A stretch of 59,380 bases of DNA, taken from sequence record PV576491.1; one strand, given 5' to 3'. Under the pieces are notes generated by a model. That model was not told where the DNA came from. It saw only the letters and a list, made by a program, of their open reading frames with translations, and ran no database searches. The translations under genes were made by a program, and so were the position numbers. The stretch is from Klebsiella phage vB_Kpn_RAH2. Below, one piece after another: positions 48,496 through 59,269 of the stretch; the first letter of the stretch is position 1, and each line of letters begins with the position of its first letter.

Positions 48496-48524
48496 ATATT
48501 AGTTGCACACGAATCGTATGTCAA
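48496..48524 (-). promoter_or_regulatory. early sigma70 promoter P4 (TTGACA-17-TAATAT) with conserved spacer motif
   Basis: Minus strand reads TTGACA TACGATTCGTGTGCAAC TAATAT. Confidence 0.65.
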
Positions 48525-48535
48525 ACGTTTTTTAA

Positions 48536-49255
48536 TTAATCCGGTTCGACCAGCGGACCCGGAAAGCGGTCGGCCCATCCATGATCGAGGATAACCATGA
48601 ATGCCTGGCGATACGCATCACGTACAGCCGAATGAGGCACATTCGGTACGCAGTTTCTGGCCCGGGCGTCTGCCAGTTTCCACAGGTCGGCTTCCCCGGG
48701 GCGCAAACGCCGCCAGCGGTTCATTAGCGTGCGGGTATCGTTTTCCGCTTTGAAACTCCATGGGCCTTTGCCTTCGCCACCCCACAGCGTGTTTTCCAGC
48801 TGGATGAGGTCGACGCGAGGGGCGTGACCCCATACCTGCAGGTCCAGCGCCTTCCAGCACCACAGGAGTGACACGGGTTGCTTAATGTCGTCTGACTCTT
48901 CGAAATCCCAATACCCTCTCACGTTCTCGTTGACCAAATGCATGAATTCCGCACGGGCATCATCGATTGACCAGCTTTTATCATCGCCTTTCCCGAACAG
49001 GTTGAACGTGTCCATAGCCGCTTCCGGATTCTGCAACGCCTGGCCGATCCACCACTGAACGGTTTCCGGATCGATATAGCCATTGGGCTTGCCTTTCTCC
49101 TGCAGCAACGTGAATGACACATGGTCCATCCAGCCTTCGTCCGCGTGGAACATGACGCACGCAAATGACAGCAGGTGGCCGTTGGTCATGCATGACAGGT
49201 TTTCCACGTCAAATACGAGGTGGATTTTGCCGATGTGTTCTGGTTTTGCTCTCAT
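48536..49255 (-). CDS. DnaQ-like DEDDh 3'-5' exonuclease, ~239 aa
   Basis: Exo I motif LVFDVENL. Exo III motif H-x4-D in HSAVRDAY. Start at ATG 49255 (ATGA overlap). Confidence 0.5.
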   Translation of the reverse strand: MRAKPEHIGKIHLVFDVENLSCMTNGHLLSFACVMFHADEGWMDHVSFTLLQEKGKPNGYIDPETVQWWIGQALQNPEAAMDTFNLFGKGDDKSWSIDDARAEFMHLVNENVRGYWDFEESDDIKQPVSLLWCWKALDLQVWGHAPRVDLIQLENTLWGGEGKGPWSFKAENDTRTLMNRWRRLRPGEADLWKLADARARNCVPNVPHSAVRDAYRQAFMVILDHGWADRFPGPLVEPD

Positions 49256-49572
49256 GGGTGTTCCTCTTCTTTGGTCCATTCTCCGCTGCCGTCGGCGCGG
49301 GTCACTTTAATAATTTCGTCTTTGTCCACATGCATCACCGGAAGCGGTGGAAATGCTACGGTACCGTCGGTGTGGCATACCCGCACTTCCACCCGCCATG
49401 GCTTCCAGAAAACCGGTATCCAGTCGCAATGCCCGATCACGATGCCGGAGTATTCCCGGCCGTTGCATTTATCCCGGAAGCGGACCATATCCCCGTAGAG
49501 GGGGTAATCAGGGTCTGGCGGGAGGGCGGCATATTTATCCGCAATTGCTCTACAGATTTCACGCATCGACAT
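49252..49572 (-). CDS. hypothetical protein, 106 aa
   Basis: Operon context. Confidence 0.45.
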   Translation of the reverse strand: MSMREICRAIADKYAALPPDPDYPLYGDMVRFRDKCNGREYSGIVIGHCDWIPVFWKPWRVEVRVCHTDGTVAFPPLPVMHVDKDEIIKVTRADGSGEWTKEEEHP

Positions 49573-49780
49573 GCTTGTCCTCCACTTCGACGGTCAAATC
49601 GCCGCAACCGACAAAATGGTTAAGGCCCATGCGCGGTGGTTCACTTACGGATTTCCAGTAATATACGGTTCGTCCATTTGCCGCGCGGTGCGTTCTCGCC
49701 AGGTCGACTATCTCGACGATGCGGGTCTTCATGATGACCCGCATCCCCGGCTTGAGGTCAGAAATCAGGACTTTCATCAC
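49559..49780 (-). CDS. hypothetical protein, 73 aa
   Basis: Operon context. Confidence 0.4.
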   Translation of the reverse strand: MMKVLISDLKPGMRVIMKTRIVEIVDLARTHRAANGRTVYYWKSVSEPPRMGLNHFVGCGDLTVEVEDKHVDA

Positions 49781-50889
49781 AGCGCTCCGTTCAGGTTGTC
49801 TGGGTCATCGGTATGGCCATACATCTCTTCGAACAGGATCATCGCTGCGGCGTACACCAGCGTCCCGCGAAGTTCGTTGATCCGGGCCTGTTTAGTCGGT
49901 AGCGATCGGGCTTCAATGGTTTTCTTGATAACCTGCTGCGCCAGGCCGGCGTCGCTGTCCAGCATACGTGCCATGGTCAGGATGGGCTGTTCAGTAAACG
50001 GCAGGTCATTGGCGTGACGCTCACGGCCTTTACCGTACGCCGCCTGTTCCAGCGCGCCGAGGAAGGTGCGCAGCAGCGGCAGGTAGTCATCCCGATCTTT
50101 CTTGCTGCGGAAGAAAAACAGTGGAGAAGGGATACCGGAGTCATCGGCCTCCATCGTCAATTCGTATTGCTGCTGTTTAGCCGCCTTAACGCCGTACGGC
50201 GCAGCCATAGCGGGCGACGTACCGACTTTACGACCATCCCACGCGAAGGCCGCCGGTTGGTTATTCGCTTTTATCATCTTCGCGACGTTTTCCATGATAT
50301 CCAGATCAGTGCACCCTGTAATATCGACTTCCGTTACGGCGGACTGGCAGCGCTTAACGAGGAAATGGACGGTGGAGATAATCGTATCTGCCGGGGCATC
50401 CGGGTCAAGTTTTAATTCTTTCGCGATCGCCTCAATCGTTTTTTCATGTTCAAATGCCTGCGCATTCACCGCGCCTGCCATGGCCAGCATTTCGTCCCAG
50501 CTGCGGCCTGTGACGCCCAGCGCGTTCGCCAGCTGGTCACGCATTTGCGAATCAACATTGGATGGAGTGCGTAAAGTAAGGCTTTTATGTCCGTTTAGAT
50601 GAGCGAACATGAGATAGTTCATCGCGTCGATCAGTTTGCCCTTAGCGATCGCATCACGAATGCAGGTGCGGCATTCATGCTCGGTCAGCTCTTTCCACGG
50701 TTCGGCTGTCGCCCACCCTCTGCGCTTATCCGCGCCGTAATAGAGACGGCCAAGCATCTCATCGAAGACGCCTTTAACCGAGGTCAGGAACGCTTCATTC
50801 AATAAATTGCTATGGAAGGGAGGCCAGCGGAGTTCGGTTCTCGGGTGAACGATTCTGTTTTTGGCCGGCATTTCTTTATTCTCTGACAT
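49777..50889 (-). CDS. hypothetical protein, 370 aa; first gene of the P3 operon
   Basis: Strong RBS CCGGAGATATGCC. No motif recognised. Confidence 0.55.
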   Translation of the reverse strand: MSENKEMPAKNRIVHPRTELRWPPFHSNLLNEAFLTSVKGVFDEMLGRLYYGADKRRGWATAEPWKELTEHECRTCIRDAIAKGKLIDAMNYLMFAHLNGHKSLTLRTPSNVDSQMRDQLANALGVTGRSWDEMLAMAGAVNAQAFEHEKTIEAIAKELKLDPDAPADTIISTVHFLVKRCQSAVTEVDITGCTDLDIMENVAKMIKANNQPAAFAWDGRKVGTSPAMAAPYGVKAAKQQQYELTMEADDSGIPSPLFFFRSKKDRDDYLPLLRTFLGALEQAAYGKGRERHANDLPFTEQPILTMARMLDSDAGLAQQVIKKTIEARSLPTKQARINELRGTLVYAAAMILFEEMYGHTDDPDNLNGAL

Positions 50890-50924
50890 GGCATATCTCC
50901 GGGTTGTTTTGTTTTTCGATTAGA

Positions 50925-50953
50925 ATACTAGCTGCACACGTGTTGTGTGTCAA
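50925..50953 (-). promoter_or_regulatory. early sigma70 promoter P3 (TTGACA-17-TAGTAT) with conserved spacer motif
   Basis: Minus strand reads TTGACA CACAACACGTGTGCAGC TAGTAT. Confidence 0.65.
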
Positions 50954-57978: not shown

Positions 57979-57990
57979 GGGATTTCCTTC

Positions 57991-58335
57991 TTAGTGTTTT
58001 GCGCCGGCGATGTCCGCCAGTACGGCTGCGACTTCCGGCGTGGGCATGTGGGTATTGGCCCAGTACAGCAGCCCGATGATGTAGTGGATCATCTGGCCGA
58101 CCTCTGCGGCGCCGCGGGCTTTTCCGCCTTTGGCTTTCGCATAATCGCCTTCGCTGAACAGCACTTTGCCGGTACCGCGGTAGCCAACGATGGCCGAACC
58201 GGTATGGGTGGCATAAATTGCGACGGCGTATTTGTCTTCCAGTGAGCGGAACGCCGGGCCAGCGTCGAGCATCTTTTTGCCGGTGACGCAGTTATTCACG
58301 GCCAGCGCGATGTTACTCGGTATCAGGTTTTCCAT
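57991..58335 (-). CDS. hypothetical protein, ~114 aa
   Basis: ATG at 58335. The track gives an alternative start at 58350. Confidence 0.4.
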   Translation of the reverse strand: MENLIPSNIALAVNNCVTGKKMLDAGPAFRSLEDKYAVAIYATHTGSAIVGYRGTGKVLFSEGDYAKAKGGKARGAAEVGQMIHYIIGLLYWANTHMPTPEVAAVLADIAGAKH

Positions 58336-58762
58336 TGAGCGGCTCTCCATTCAGGGTGTAGATGACGACGCCCGGCACGCTGACGTCGATAGACAGCGAT
58401 GGCACAAAGCCGGACATAACGTTCTGCGGGGTGATAGTGGCGCGTTTCAGGCCGTTCTCGTACATGATGTTCGCGATGCCTGCCATGACGGACTTCTCCA
58501 TGAGGTTCAGGGTCGTCTCTTCGCGCATCTCCAGCAGCAGTTCCAGTTCGGCGGCGCGGTCAGGGATATCGAACGCCCGCTGCAGCGCACCGATTAGTGC
58601 AATGGCGTCATCACGGGTAAGCCGGCTGATAGCGTCAATATCGCCATTCGGGCTTTCGACCCTGATGGACCCGCGCTGTTCATCGTAGCCGTACGGACGA
58701 GCAACCGTGGCTTCACGGCCGTCGCTAAGGTCCAGTTCTTCGAATGCTTCTGACGTGGTCAT
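58313..58762 (-). CDS. hypothetical acidic protein, 149 aa
   Basis: RBS CCGGAGACA. Confidence 0.5.
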   Translation of the reverse strand: MTTSEAFEELDLSDGREATVARPYGYDEQRGSIRVESPNGDIDAISRLTRDDAIALIGALQRAFDIPDRAAELELLLEMREETTLNLMEKSVMAGIANIMYENGLKRATITPQNVMSGFVPSLSIDVSVPGVVIYTLNGEPLNGKPDTE

Positions 58763-58821
58763 GTGGTGTCTCCGGGTGAAAAGGGTGGTACGGCAAAAAA
58801 GAGGTGCCGCGTCCTACAGGA

Positions 58822-59199
58822 TTAAACTTCGTCGTCTTCCGGTGTGCCGGCGCCGTCATCAATGCGCTTGATCGCCACCTGGATAAACGCACGGCCCGAC
58901 GGGTACATGACCAGCGCCGTTTCCAGTGAGAACTGACTATTGCAGGCCCGTTTGGCGTTACGCAGGGAAGACGACACGCCGTTACGCATTTTGTAGCGCA
59001 GCGCTGTGGCTTCGGTCTGCAGGTCCACCAGCGCCTTGCTGCTATCCAGCTCCTGCGCATACACGTAGACCTCGCCCGGCTTGAGGCCGATCAGGTTGCC
59101 AGTGATACTGTTAGCCCGGATACCTGACGGCAGCTCCACGTCCGTCTCCATGGTCATCATGGCCGGCGTCAGGTCATCCAGGATAATCGCGTCGTTCAT
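58822..59199 (-). CDS. hypothetical protein with acidic C-terminal tail, 125 aa; first gene of the P1 operon
   Basis: RBS ACGGAGAATACC. Ends in the acidic tail TPEDDEV. Confidence 0.5.
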   Translation of the reverse strand: MNDAIILDDLTPAMMTMETDVELPSGIRANSITGNLIGLKPGEVYVYAQELDSSKALVDLQTEATALRYKMRNGVSSSLRNAKRACNSQFSLETALVMYPSGRAFIQVAIKRIDDGAGTPEDDEV

Positions 59200-59240
59200 C
59201 GGTATTCTCCGTCGTTAAATTTGCAGATCTGTCACGCTGA

Positions 59241-59269
59241 ACTGTAGTTGCATACGCTCCGTGTGTCAA
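59241..59269 (-). promoter_or_regulatory. early sigma70 promoter P1 (TTGACA-17-TACAGT) with conserved spacer motif
   Basis: Minus strand reads TTGACA CACGGAGCGTATGCAAC TACAGT. It lies ~20 bp inside the right-end iterated repeats. Confidence 0.6.

Follow-up and report, generated by a model that had tools for sequence, protein, structure and literature searches.

Spacers of six promoters in a chi-like Klebsiella phage share a dyad that may serve as an operator

The window studied here, a stretch of 59,380 nucleotides, is the complete genome of a siphophage, a chi-like Klebsiella Yonseivirus (Casjensviridae). Four promoter-like sites on its minus strand resemble each other in the spacer as well as in the -35 and -10 boxes, which raises the question of what the shared spacer sequence is for. 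A check of the sequence located all four sites, with their letters, where the original prediction had put them:

59269-59241, minus strand: P1, TTGACA cacggagcgtatgcaac TACAGT
55148-55120, minus strand: P2, TTGACA cacgaatcgtgttcagc TACATT
50953-50925, minus strand: P3, TTGACA cacaacacgtgtgcagc TAGTAT
48524-48496, minus strand: P4, TTGACA tacgattcgtgtgcaac TAATAT

Each has a perfect TTGACA, a 17-bp spacer and a TAnnnT box, and 10 of the 12 consensus positions are matched. An A-rich, UP-like tract (aGAAAgcgT) is present upstream of the promoters. All four lie in gene gaps, 23-42 bp upstream of a start codon: P1 leads the leftward arm, with the DUF7609 gene beginning at 59199, the gene downstream of P2 begins at 55090, and the cytosine methylase ORF (50950-52110) terminates at the TGA contained in the -35 box of P3. 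The window contains 20 TTGACA hexamers, and only at P1-P4 does TAnnnT follow 17 bp downstream. The pattern TTGACA-N7-CGTRTKCARC has 4 matches, against 0.19 expected from shuffles, and at least 4 were found in none of 100 shuffles. The spacers of P1-P4 are identical at 11-13 of 17 positions in pairwise comparison, whereas the spacers behind the other 16 TTGACA sites, used as controls, show a mean agreement of 4.7 and a maximum of 9. At the level of sequence, the proposal that P1-P4 make up a single class of promoters, of the host sigma-70 type, is supported.

Two terminator-like structures adjoin these promoters:

55164-55197, minus strand: intrinsic terminator, AAGCCCGG...CCGGGCTT followed by a T run, closing the P1 operon
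48466-48494, minus strand: terminator-like hairpin, ACTCCCG...CGGGAGT followed by T6, immediately past the -10 box of P4

The first lies 15 bp upstream of the -35 box of P2, and a terminator is annotated at the equivalent place in Seifer. The second holds the predicted P4 start site within its 5′ arm; the equivalent hairpin is annotated as a terminator in Siskin.

The motif shared by the spacers is an inverted repeat, a 15-bp dyad of the form CAYACG-N3-CGTRTG. Its centre is spacer position 6, about -24 from the predicted start site, and its left arm borrows the CA of TTGACA as its first two bases:

59251-59265, minus strand: P1 dyad, CACACG-GAG-CGTATG
55130-55144, minus strand: P2 dyad, CACACG-AAT-CGTGTT
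50935-50949, minus strand: P3 dyad, CACACA-ACA-CGTGTG
48506-48520, minus strand: P4 dyad, CATACG-ATT-CGTGTG

The motif originally described is real, but is better written in this form; CACG directly after the -35 box had been ascribed to all four promoters, and P3 has CACA there. The dyad also occurs at three other sites:

416-444, plus strand: PR1, TTGCAC-17-TATGTT, dyad CACTCA-TTC-CGTGTG at 419-433
3042-3070, plus strand: PR2, TTGCAC-17-TATGTT, dyad CACTCG-TTC-CGTGTG at 3045-3059
5522-5549, minus strand: degenerate seventh family member near cos, ATAACA-16-TACCGT, dyad CACCCG-CCC-CGTGTG at 5531-5545

With at most one mismatch the dyad is present at six places in the window (P1-P4, PR2 and the degenerate site), against about 0.6 expected. 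The PR1 dyad has two mismatches and sits one base nearer its -35 box. No ORF lies downstream of the degenerate site, whose counterpart in Seifer reads TTGACA-16-TACAGT. The 8-mer CGTGTGCA is present in the two plus-strand promoter-like sites, as claimed (428-435 and 3054-3061), but taken alone it is barely enriched (6 matches versus 2.5 expected, with at least 6 in 4 of 100 shuffles). The information content of the dyad pattern is too low for a meaningful scan of host genomes.

The original prediction assigned these promoters to both genome ends, which is incorrect: the window ends are contiguous in relatives. P1 and PR1 are divergent promoters in a single internal intergenic region of ~680 bp, split by the window junction, and the physical cos end is near 5831/5832. 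Since the window was opened inside one divergent control region, the two "ends" are an artefact of linearisation.

Across 15 aligned sites, information content is 1.0-1.65 bits at spacer positions 1-4, 0.2-0.6 bits at positions 5-7 and 0.8-2.0 bits at positions 8-13, which is the pattern of two half-sites flanking a free centre. An inverted repeat of this size, with a 6-bp arm and a 3-nt centre, recalls the promoters of the N4 virion polymerase (stem of 5-7 bp, loop of 3 nt), and could in principle work by extruding as a hairpin in DNA or by forming a stem in RNA. We regard this as highly improbable. No Watson-Crick co-variation between spacer positions 1 and 11 was found in the aligned sites (C/A 5, T/G 7, C/G 3, T/A 0), which argues against a stem in DNA or RNA; in addition, many arms contain mismatches, the repeat is upstream of the predicted start site, and the ORF list of the window has no entry of virion RNA polymerase size.

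A search for the spacer motif in relatives revealed it across four genera. Chivirus FSL SP-030, Enchivirus Enc34 and Redjacvirus Redjac each repeat the arrangement of four promoters pointing left and two pointing right, all with this dyad. Phages infecting Salmonella, Klebsiella, Hafnia/Enterobacter and Providencia therefore have one CAYACG-type dyad in common. In three further, more distant genera the centre of the dyad is kept and the half-sites are symmetrically replaced at the same place:

JC01: TTGACA-CAC-N5-GTGT
PM87 and Kokobel1: TTGACA-CC-N7-GGT
JS26: tGC-N5-GC-tGT

In each of the four groups, spacer position 6 ranks first, alone or jointly, as dyad centre; in groups II-IV the centres measure 5-7 nt and the arms 2-4 bp, which also speaks against a hairpin. 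Within Yonseivirus (6-10 variants per promoter) spacer substitutions are confined to positions 5-7, and the DNA upstream of about -45 is highly variable. These results, with variation at the dyad centre among close relatives, bear out the proposal that a putative operator is embedded in the spacer. In IMG/VR, the exact motif is accompanied by a TAnnnT -10 box on all chi-like contig matches except L034 (one homologue), and in just 1 of the 14 matches without a homologue of the window's proteins.

The same comparison bears on shared descent, under which the promoters would merely have been duplicated, their spacers being too young to diverge or homogenised by recombination. PR1 and PR2 are an obvious case of duplication, with a near-identical stretch of ~115 bp that includes the leader. 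Beyond about -45 to -7, P1-P4 have nothing in common, and the pattern survives across genera in which early proteins have 40-60% identity and flanking DNA does not align. Conservation that is specific to positions, in two half-sites around a free centre, already contradicts descent as the sole cause, which we consider very unlikely.

The occurrence of one dyad in phages of several hosts would also be expected if it were the site of a host transcription factor common to Enterobacterales, coupling the phage early genes to host physiology. Furthermore, P1 and P4 of Yonseivirus have ATGCAAC beside the -10 box, which we take to resemble the CytR half-site AATGCAAC. The TGCAAC extension is missing in Chivirus, Enchivirus and Redjacvirus, and we know of no enterobacterial operator of the form CACACG-N3-CGTGTG. 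Redjac and Kokobel1 have different dyads despite infecting the same host, Providencia stuartii, which points to a phage factor rather than a host factor. We consider a host factor unlikely.

Spacer sequence modulates sigma-70 promoters, and the conserved positions could be an element read by RNA polymerase itself and selected for very high promoter strength, acting through spacer conformation, contacts with sigma region 3 or the beta-prime zipper, or sigma-S compatibility conferred by C at -13. The near-consensus boxes, the A-rich upstream tract and the presence of C at -13 in 10 of the 15 sites would fit. The conserved positions are two-fold symmetric, however, and polymerase contacts are not; half-sites are symmetrically swapped between lineages that use the same enterobacterial polymerase; and two promoters without a dyad (9336 and 9423) are conserved across genera with quite different spacers. 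An intrinsic element seems to us as unlikely as a host factor.

The dyad might instead bind a positive factor of the phage, either an activator or a protein that retains polymerase at phage promoters once host shut-off has occurred. Activators of the MerR type, and some of class II, do bind in or beside the spacer. MerR-type control, however, requires spacers of 19-20 bp, a site at -31 to -17 on a 17-bp spacer overlaps the contacts of sigma region 4, and with 10 of 12 consensus positions and an optimal spacer the promoters should need no activator. A positive factor would explain an RNA-seq result from another member of the family, JS26, in which the homologous arm falls into the middle class (PMC8754663; bioRxiv 10.64898/2025.12.19.695335): this arm, the counterpart of the one with P1-P4, carries consensus promoters of the dyad type and peaks at 20 min and not at 5 min (PMC8754663). 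The authors of the JS26 study noted that the delayed expression may reflect slow DNA entry. The designation of P1-P4 as early promoters is thus tentative, and a positive factor is a rather improbable reading, slightly more so than the two preceding ones.

We favour, with somewhat better than even confidence, the interpretation that the dyad is the operator of a dimeric protein encoded by the phage, most probably a repressor, and that the six promoters constitute one regulon. Host RNA polymerase would fire P1-P4, PR1 and PR2 once the DNA enters the cell, and a dimeric phage DNA-binding protein would then fill the dyads. A protein bound to the dyad, which covers about -31 to -17, would thereby keep sigma region 4 and polymerase off the -35 box and spacer, and both divergent arms would be switched off together. 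The most likely binder would be made along with the primase from a promoter lacking the dyad:

8990-9271, minus strand: HTH-like protein of 93 aa (phrog_7401; 98 aa from an alternative start at 9286), best candidate dyad binder
6402-8993: primase gene, co-transcribed with the HTH-like gene
9308-9336, minus strand: promoter-like site of the HTH-primase operon, TTGACC-17-TAATAT, without dyad

The original prediction had named this protein as the repressor, which is plausible. Its assignment to the HTH proteins is weak. Pfam gave no match for the window protein itself and weak ones for its orthologues (HTH_26, 4.8e-4; LacI, 0.018, in one orthologue). Profile comparison with PDB aligns it in register to the headpieces of LacI and CytR, at a marginal E of ~0.05. 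The AlphaFold2 model is poor (pLDDT 68); Foldseek ranks XRE, Cro and cI repressors highest, and all its matches have E of at least 0.7. It is nevertheless the sole conserved small protein with HTH signals, Pfam scans of other early ORFs having revealed no DNA-binding domain, and it was found by sequence or position in every lineage examined. At the putative recognition helix the sequence is Y-x-TLLW in the CAYACG group, while JC01 has TALK there, and PM87 and Kokobel1 have VRGVSQA; this match between helix and dyad types follows phylogeny and is not independent evidence, and DUF7609 shows the same clade pattern. Yonseivirus alleles of the protein are 98, 67 and 59% identical with unchanged operators; such divergence can be squared with the proposal only on account of the retained putative recognition helix. 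No dyad was found in the candidate's own control region in any lineage, hence there is no signal of autoregulation.

The proposed arrangement resembles the repressor/Cro operators of lambdoid phages (lambda OR/OL, 434, P22 c2), which are also two-fold symmetric over 14-17 bp, their outer half-sites being conserved and their centre less constrained. Those operators likewise coincide in part with the -35 box and spacer of sigma-70 promoters, are present in several copies, are read by small phage HTH dimers (here only a candidate) and vary in specificity between related phages. Unlike lambdoid phages, the chi-like family is virulent as far as known, and neither an integrase nor an immunity region was identified; each promoter has a single site, and the sites are scattered over six promoters and two arms rather than placed in cooperative tandem; and the candidate, from an unnamed family, is not adjacent to its sites. 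Operators between the -35 and -10 boxes occur naturally at P22 Pant, bound by Arc, and in the engineered PLtetO-1 and PA1lacO-1 of Lutz and Bujard, although here the left arm also takes two bases of the -35 hexamer. In a strong promoter, this position gives the tightest competition with RNA polymerase.

The candidate also resembles the LacI/GalR headpiece (LAkaAGVsYxT...VSaq.ae), and LacI-family operators are palindromes with a central CG. With 93 aa and no sugar-binding core, and at marginal E-values, this is resemblance and not membership. Restriction-modification C proteins are likewise small XRE-type HTH dimers with dyads overlapping the -35 box, and C.AhdI, C.Esp1396I and C.BclI are among the non-significant Foldseek matches. 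C-boxes, however, lie upstream of the C gene and autoregulate, whereas the candidate's promoter has no dyad; no restriction enzyme gene is annotated in relatives or was detected in Pfam scans.

Virulent phages are known to shut off early transcription, as phi29 does with p4 and p6 on A2b/A2c, T5 by A1-dependent shut-off, and SPO1. The proposed purpose is the same, turning off early promoters of the host polymerase when the next class is needed, but those phages use other proteins and other site architectures; to our knowledge, in none of them do all early promoters carry a 15-bp dyad with its centre at -24. In this chi-like phage, a single phage protein could, most likely, silence all six promoters jointly.

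The original prediction described four leftward early promoters in the window, with an operator embedded in the spacer that a phage repressor might read. On the minus strand the four promoters (P1 to P4) were recovered letter for letter and at the exact coordinates:

59269-59241, minus strand: P1, TTGACA cacggagcgtatgcaac TACAGT
55148-55120, minus strand: P2, TTGACA cacgaatcgtgttcagc TACATT
50953-50925, minus strand: P3, TTGACA cacaacacgtgtgcagc TAGTAT
48524-48496, minus strand: P4, TTGACA tacgattcgtgtgcaac TAATAT

Each has a perfect -35 box, a 17-bp spacer and a -10 box that matches the consensus at 4 of 6 positions, including A2 and T6. 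The CACG said to follow all four -35 boxes is CACA in P3, and the four-site family itself stands. A generic promoter scan ranked P1-P4 as the top four of the right 19 kb. The pattern TTGACA-N7-CGTRTKCARC was found 4 times in the window (0.19 expected), and among the 20 TTGACA hexamers of the window only those of P1-P4 are followed by TAnnnT after 17 bp. Compared in pairs, these four spacers are identical at 11-13 of 17 positions, against a mean of 4.7 and a maximum of 9 for 16 control spacers. A start codon in the correct orientation lies 23-42 bp downstream of each -10 box, and relatives use the same positions. A strong terminator directly precedes P2, and the TGA within the P3 -35 box (50948-50953, minus strand) is the stop codon of a 386-aa cytosine methylase ORF (50950-52110). 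Pattern counts, spacer agreement and gene placement together put the family beyond chance. As read from the DNA, P1-P4 have the hexamers, the spacing and the placement of sigma-70-dependent bacterial promoters.

At P4, a terminator-like hairpin (48466-48494, minus strand; ACTCCCG...CGGGAGT, then T6) begins immediately past the -10 box and sequesters a GGGAG ribosome-binding site. The hairpin forms in read-through RNA (-14.3 kcal/mol), whereas RNA begun 6-9 nt past the -10 box is without its 5′ arm (-2.3 to -4.9 kcal/mol). Because only read-through RNA folds it, upstream transcripts could terminate here while P4 transcripts escape. The hairpin is conserved downstream of this promoter's orthologues in Chivirus, Enchivirus and Redjacvirus, and the Siskin annotation lists it as a terminator.

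The proposed operator is a 15-bp inverted repeat, CAYACG-N3-CGTRTG (hereafter the dyad), which spans ~-31 to -17. Its first two bases are the CA of TTGACA, and a CA is common to the dyad and the -35 box in all six promoters considered here; the best dyad centre is spacer position 6 (0.67 complementary pairs). With at most one mismatch, the dyad was found at six places in the window (12 strand matches versus 1.1 expected), namely at P1-P4, at 3045-3059 and at 5531-5545, and with two mismatches at 419-433. The copies outside P1-P4 lie in the following promoters:

416-444, plus strand: PR1, TTGCAC-17-TATGTT, dyad at 419
3042-3070, plus strand: PR2, TTGCAC-17-TATGTT, dyad at 3045
5522-5549, minus strand: degenerate, weak seventh dyad promoter near cos, ATAACA-16-TACCGT, dyad at 5531

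The rightward promoters PR1 and PR2 correspond to the two left-arm promoters mentioned in the original prediction, and both are conserved among other Yonseivirus genomes. They lie in a near-identical duplicate of ~115 bp (380-495 and 3006-3121, plus strand) that takes in promoter and dyad, the AT-rich tract upstream of them and the entire leader to the ribosome-binding site; this near-identity points to a recent duplication or gene conversion. An A-rich tract is found at -44 to -40 of the six promoters. With its 15 bp, two-fold symmetry and conserved half-sites, the dyad has the form of lambdoid-type repressor operators, which measure 14-17 bp. It overlaps core promoter elements, and a protein bound there would be expected to exclude RNA polymerase.

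The Seifer counterpart of the weak 5522-5549 site reads TTGACA-16-TACAGT. In the window this site is part of a cluster (5380-5600) of TTGCAC- or ATGCAC-type, half-site-like elements (at ~5394, 5466, 5527 and 5582) within the 580 bp of non-coding DNA that separate cos from the last rightward gene. The cluster, for which no Rfam match was obtained, might be the source of a small RNA, either antisense or non-coding; Rfam and tRNA scans of the whole window also gave no matches.

The window is ~92% identical to Klebsiella phages KPN N137, PIN1/PIN2, Seifer, Soft and MAG26fr (Yonseivirus, Casjensviridae), with Salmonella phage Chi and its relatives as more distant kin. When its end was joined to its start, the alignment to PIN2, MAG26fr and Seifer was unbroken, which indicates that the window is a circular permutation cut within a ~680-bp divergent control region. 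The virion end, cos, maps near 5831/5832, where the last 400 nt of the Seifer record (5431-5831) stop; a cos-like GGCGCAGAGCCGCGG comes next, and Enc34 begins with GGTGCGCAGAGCCGCG. Since the cut falls inside the divergent region and cos lies elsewhere, the claim that both genome ends carry one promoter class is an artefact of the permutation: P1 pairs back to back with the plus-strand promoter at 416.

Two repeat arrays were observed in these regions. Between the divergent promoters there are four direct copies (none expected) of a 28-nt iteron, TTTCAGCCnGCyAGnTTTTTsAAGTAAG:

59284-59311, plus strand: iteron copy, direct repeat
59315-59342, plus strand: iteron copy, direct repeat
103-130, plus strand: iteron copy, direct repeat
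148-175, plus strand: iteron copy, direct repeat

The same region of FSL SP-030, Enc34 and Redjac has 3-5 copies of ...GTTTTTCAAGTAAG. The 28-nt iterons could be a second conserved protein-binding array, a replication origin or the site of another regulator. At 6065-6319, just past the 3′ end of the primase gene and 230-490 bp from cos, GTTTGTTACC occurs seven times, in both orientations and with one mismatch allowed, on either side of a very AT-rich stretch; these copies might be cosB-like sites bound by terminase, or origin iterons.

Whether the spacer motif is kept in relatives was a check set by the original prediction. A weight matrix built from the perfect-TTGACA sites was used to scan Chivirus FSL SP-030, Enchivirus Enc34 and Redjacvirus Redjac, and in each of them the dyad was found in six promoters, four leftward and two rightward, at orthologous gene boundaries, so that the motif is shared by four genera (the CAYACG group). 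Over 15 sites the information content was 1.0-1.65 bits at spacer positions 1-4, 0.2-0.6 at positions 5-7 and 0.8-2.0 at positions 8-13, with T10 and T12 invariant. Within Yonseivirus (6-10 variants per promoter) the spacer changes only at positions 5-7, and the DNA upstream of ~-45 is highly variable. Spacer length is 17 bp, with 16-18 bp in a few relatives. An exact-motif scan of IMG/VR matched 36 stretches; on contigs with homologues of window proteins all but one had TAnnnT at 17 bp, compared with 1 of the 14 on contigs without such homologues. At 30 bits, the pattern would be expected to match bacterial genomes about a thousand times by chance.

More distant Casjensviridae retain the consensus hexamers and have other symmetric elements in the same position:

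JC01: CAC-N5-GTGT
PM87 and Kokobel1: CC-N7-GGT
JS26: tGC-N5-GC-tGT

In each of the four groups no dyad centre scored higher than spacer position 6, and where position 2 has gone from A to C, position 10 has gone symmetrically from T to G. Redjac and Kokobel1 have the same host, Providencia stuartii, and their dyads differ. The record cftriSP11 was considered as an intermediate lineage and set aside as uninformative, being unverified, frameshifted and simply a Chivirus. The information profile, the centre-only variation in close relatives and the symmetric replacement of half-sites argue for selection on the dyad separate from that on the hexamers. The comparative data fit a two-fold symmetric protein site whose specificity would have drifted with a phage-encoded reader; they fit neither a stem, nor an element intrinsic to the polymerase, nor mere common descent. 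Positions 1 and 11 showed no base-pair co-variation among the CAYACG-group sites (C/A 5, T/G 7, C/G 3, T/A 0).

Spacer-embedded operators are known from P22 Pant/Arc and from engineered tetO and lacO promoters, and the arrangement would work as it does in lambdoid operators. Repression is known to be tightest from operators placed between the two hexamers. Other known systems were set aside. Activation by MerR-type binding to the spacer needs a 19-20 bp spacer that the regulator untwists, and the window spacers are 17 bp. Hairpin promoters of the N4 type were discarded, as there is neither stem co-variation nor a virion RNA polymerase gene; the largest ORF of the window (1435 aa) is at the position that relatives annotate as tape measure protein. 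The intact TTGACA of the window sets its promoters apart from the MotA/AsiA middle promoters of T4, where the -35 element gives way to a MotA box at -30.

To identify the binder, most early ORFs of both arms were scanned against Pfam and PHROGs; no Pfam DNA-binding domain was detected among them, and all PHROGs were of "unknown function". The candidate of the original prediction was the helix-turn-helix (HTH) protein at 8990-9286 (minus strand; phrog_7401). Its homologues start at M6, which gives a 93-aa product (8990-9271). Orthologues are present in Chivirus, Enchivirus, Redjacvirus and JC01, and PM87 and Kokobel1 have positional orthologues ahead of the primase gene. An HTH could be discerned by eye (LAKAAGVNYDTLLWNIRN). 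The window protein itself had no Pfam match; among seven orthologues, two matched HTH_26 (4.8e-4) and one matched LacI (0.018). A profile of the seven sequences aligned in register with CytR, LacI and four other LacI-family headpieces, at marginal E values (0.045 to 1.5). Membership of the LacI/GalR family was rejected, because only the headpiece region aligns (E ~0.05) and the defining LacI core domain, similar to periplasmic binding proteins, is missing; the likeness is to a LacI or Cro headpiece. AlphaFold2 gave a poor model (pLDDT 68), helical throughout, for which the top Foldseek matches were repressors of the XRE, Cro, cI and C-protein kinds, none with E below 0.7.

Another protein considered was DUF7609 (58822-59199, minus strand; phrog_6647), the first gene after P1 and a conceivable Cro-like repressor. 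It was set aside, since its AlphaFold2 model (pLDDT 75) is beta-alpha-beta-beta with an acidic tail, and no DNA-binding-like PDB match was found for the model. The tail (EDDEV in the window; DDDEV or longer in Chi, Enc34 and Redjac; missing in JC01, PM87 and Kokobel1) is reminiscent of those of ssDNA-binding proteins. We found no support in this analysis for the "RecT family" or "replication protein" labels of some records. The gp01 of FSL SP-030, annotated as cro/c1, has no homologue in the window or the other genera and was rejected. PDB sequence searches with the two candidate proteins singly gave nothing significant, and both structure models rest on shallow alignments because the word-indexed protein search returned only very close relatives.

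By elimination, and from weak fold evidence, the 93-aa protein is our best candidate for the dyad binder. For its putative recognition helix the CAYACG group has Y-x-TLLW, JC01 has TALK, and PM87 and Kokobel1 have VRGVSQA; helix type tracks dyad type, but it tracks phylogeny as well. With 20 cluster representatives (50% identity) in 1.8 billion proteins, the family is very small, and roughly 140 genomes carry the gene. Among the ~92%-identical Klebsiella phages the HTH-like gene is mosaic (98% identity to Salado and SAKp15, 67% to Soft, PIN1, KPN U2874 and S9a, 59% to Seifer), and the six promoters are nearly unchanged. The gene is flanked by two sigma-70-like promoters, at 9336 (minus strand) and 9423 (plus strand), both dyad-less, and no lineage-specific dyad of the kind expected for autoregulation was found in its control region in any lineage examined.

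A third promoter class was observed ahead of the replication and structural operon (9340-9480, plus strand; TTGACA-17-CATACT), also without the dyad. It has GGTACC upstream at 9350 and 9395 and a AAAAATATTT tract; the spacer core CGGCA and the leader CGTCAACACGACA are conserved, and the class is kept in FSL SP-030, Enc34, Redjac, JC01, PM87 and Kokobel1.

We propose that host E-sigma-70 would use all six promoters, and that a dimer of the phage protein on the dyad would exclude sigma region 4 and polymerase. Both arms would then be shut off together once the protein, made together with primase from a dyad-less promoter, has accumulated. The timing can be compared with RNA-seq of the distant relative JS26 (Dunedinvirus), in which the cos-adjacent arm is expressed early (5 min), the homologue of the P1-P4 arm belongs to the middle class (20 min), and primase and replication genes are middle-late; the JS26 authors propose that DNA near cos is the first to enter the cell (PMC8754663; bioRxiv 10.64898/2025.12.19.695335). 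Because the homologous arm is of the middle class in JS26, the term "early" for P1-P4 is an assumption. The peak of that arm in the middle class would also suit a dyad that activates rather than represses, as it may; against this, consensus hexamers with a 17-bp spacer make an activator unnecessary. Returning to repression, we advance a broader model tentatively and consider it rather unlikely to hold as a whole: stand-alone headpiece-like HTH proteins of ~93 aa (phrog_7401), a family that has had no name so far, would be the master timer of chi-like virulent phages, closing six early/middle promoters with one operator each, and protein and operator would have co-diverged, at one set place in a consensus promoter that is constant in other respects, into at least 3-4 specificities orthogonal to one another (CAYACG-N3-CGTRTG, CAC-N5-GTG, CC-N7-GG, GC-N5-GC).

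We conclude that the promoter-family observation is confirmed and extended, and that its interpretation is supported in part. A phage operator-promoter regulon is of a known kind; the window example adds an unusually clear comparative signature and ready-made specificity variants. In the literature we found genome announcements of chi-like phages and one RNA-seq study of a distant member (JS26), and no description of their promoters or regulators. The Casjensviridae are widely isolated flagellotropic phages and therapeutic candidates whose transcription programme is undescribed, and the analysis yields a testable regulon of six promoters, a 15-bp putative operator and one conserved HTH-like candidate, with the specificity variants of sister genera as built-in controls. 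If the model fails, a symmetric, lineage-specific spacer element still needs explaining. If it is true, it would explain early-gene shut-off in a virulent siphophage that depends on host polymerase throughout, and would provide compact consensus promoters with exchangeable operators; the broader model, if true, would yield a natural set of compact orthogonal repressor-promoter pairs and be the first described transcriptional switch for the Casjensviridae.
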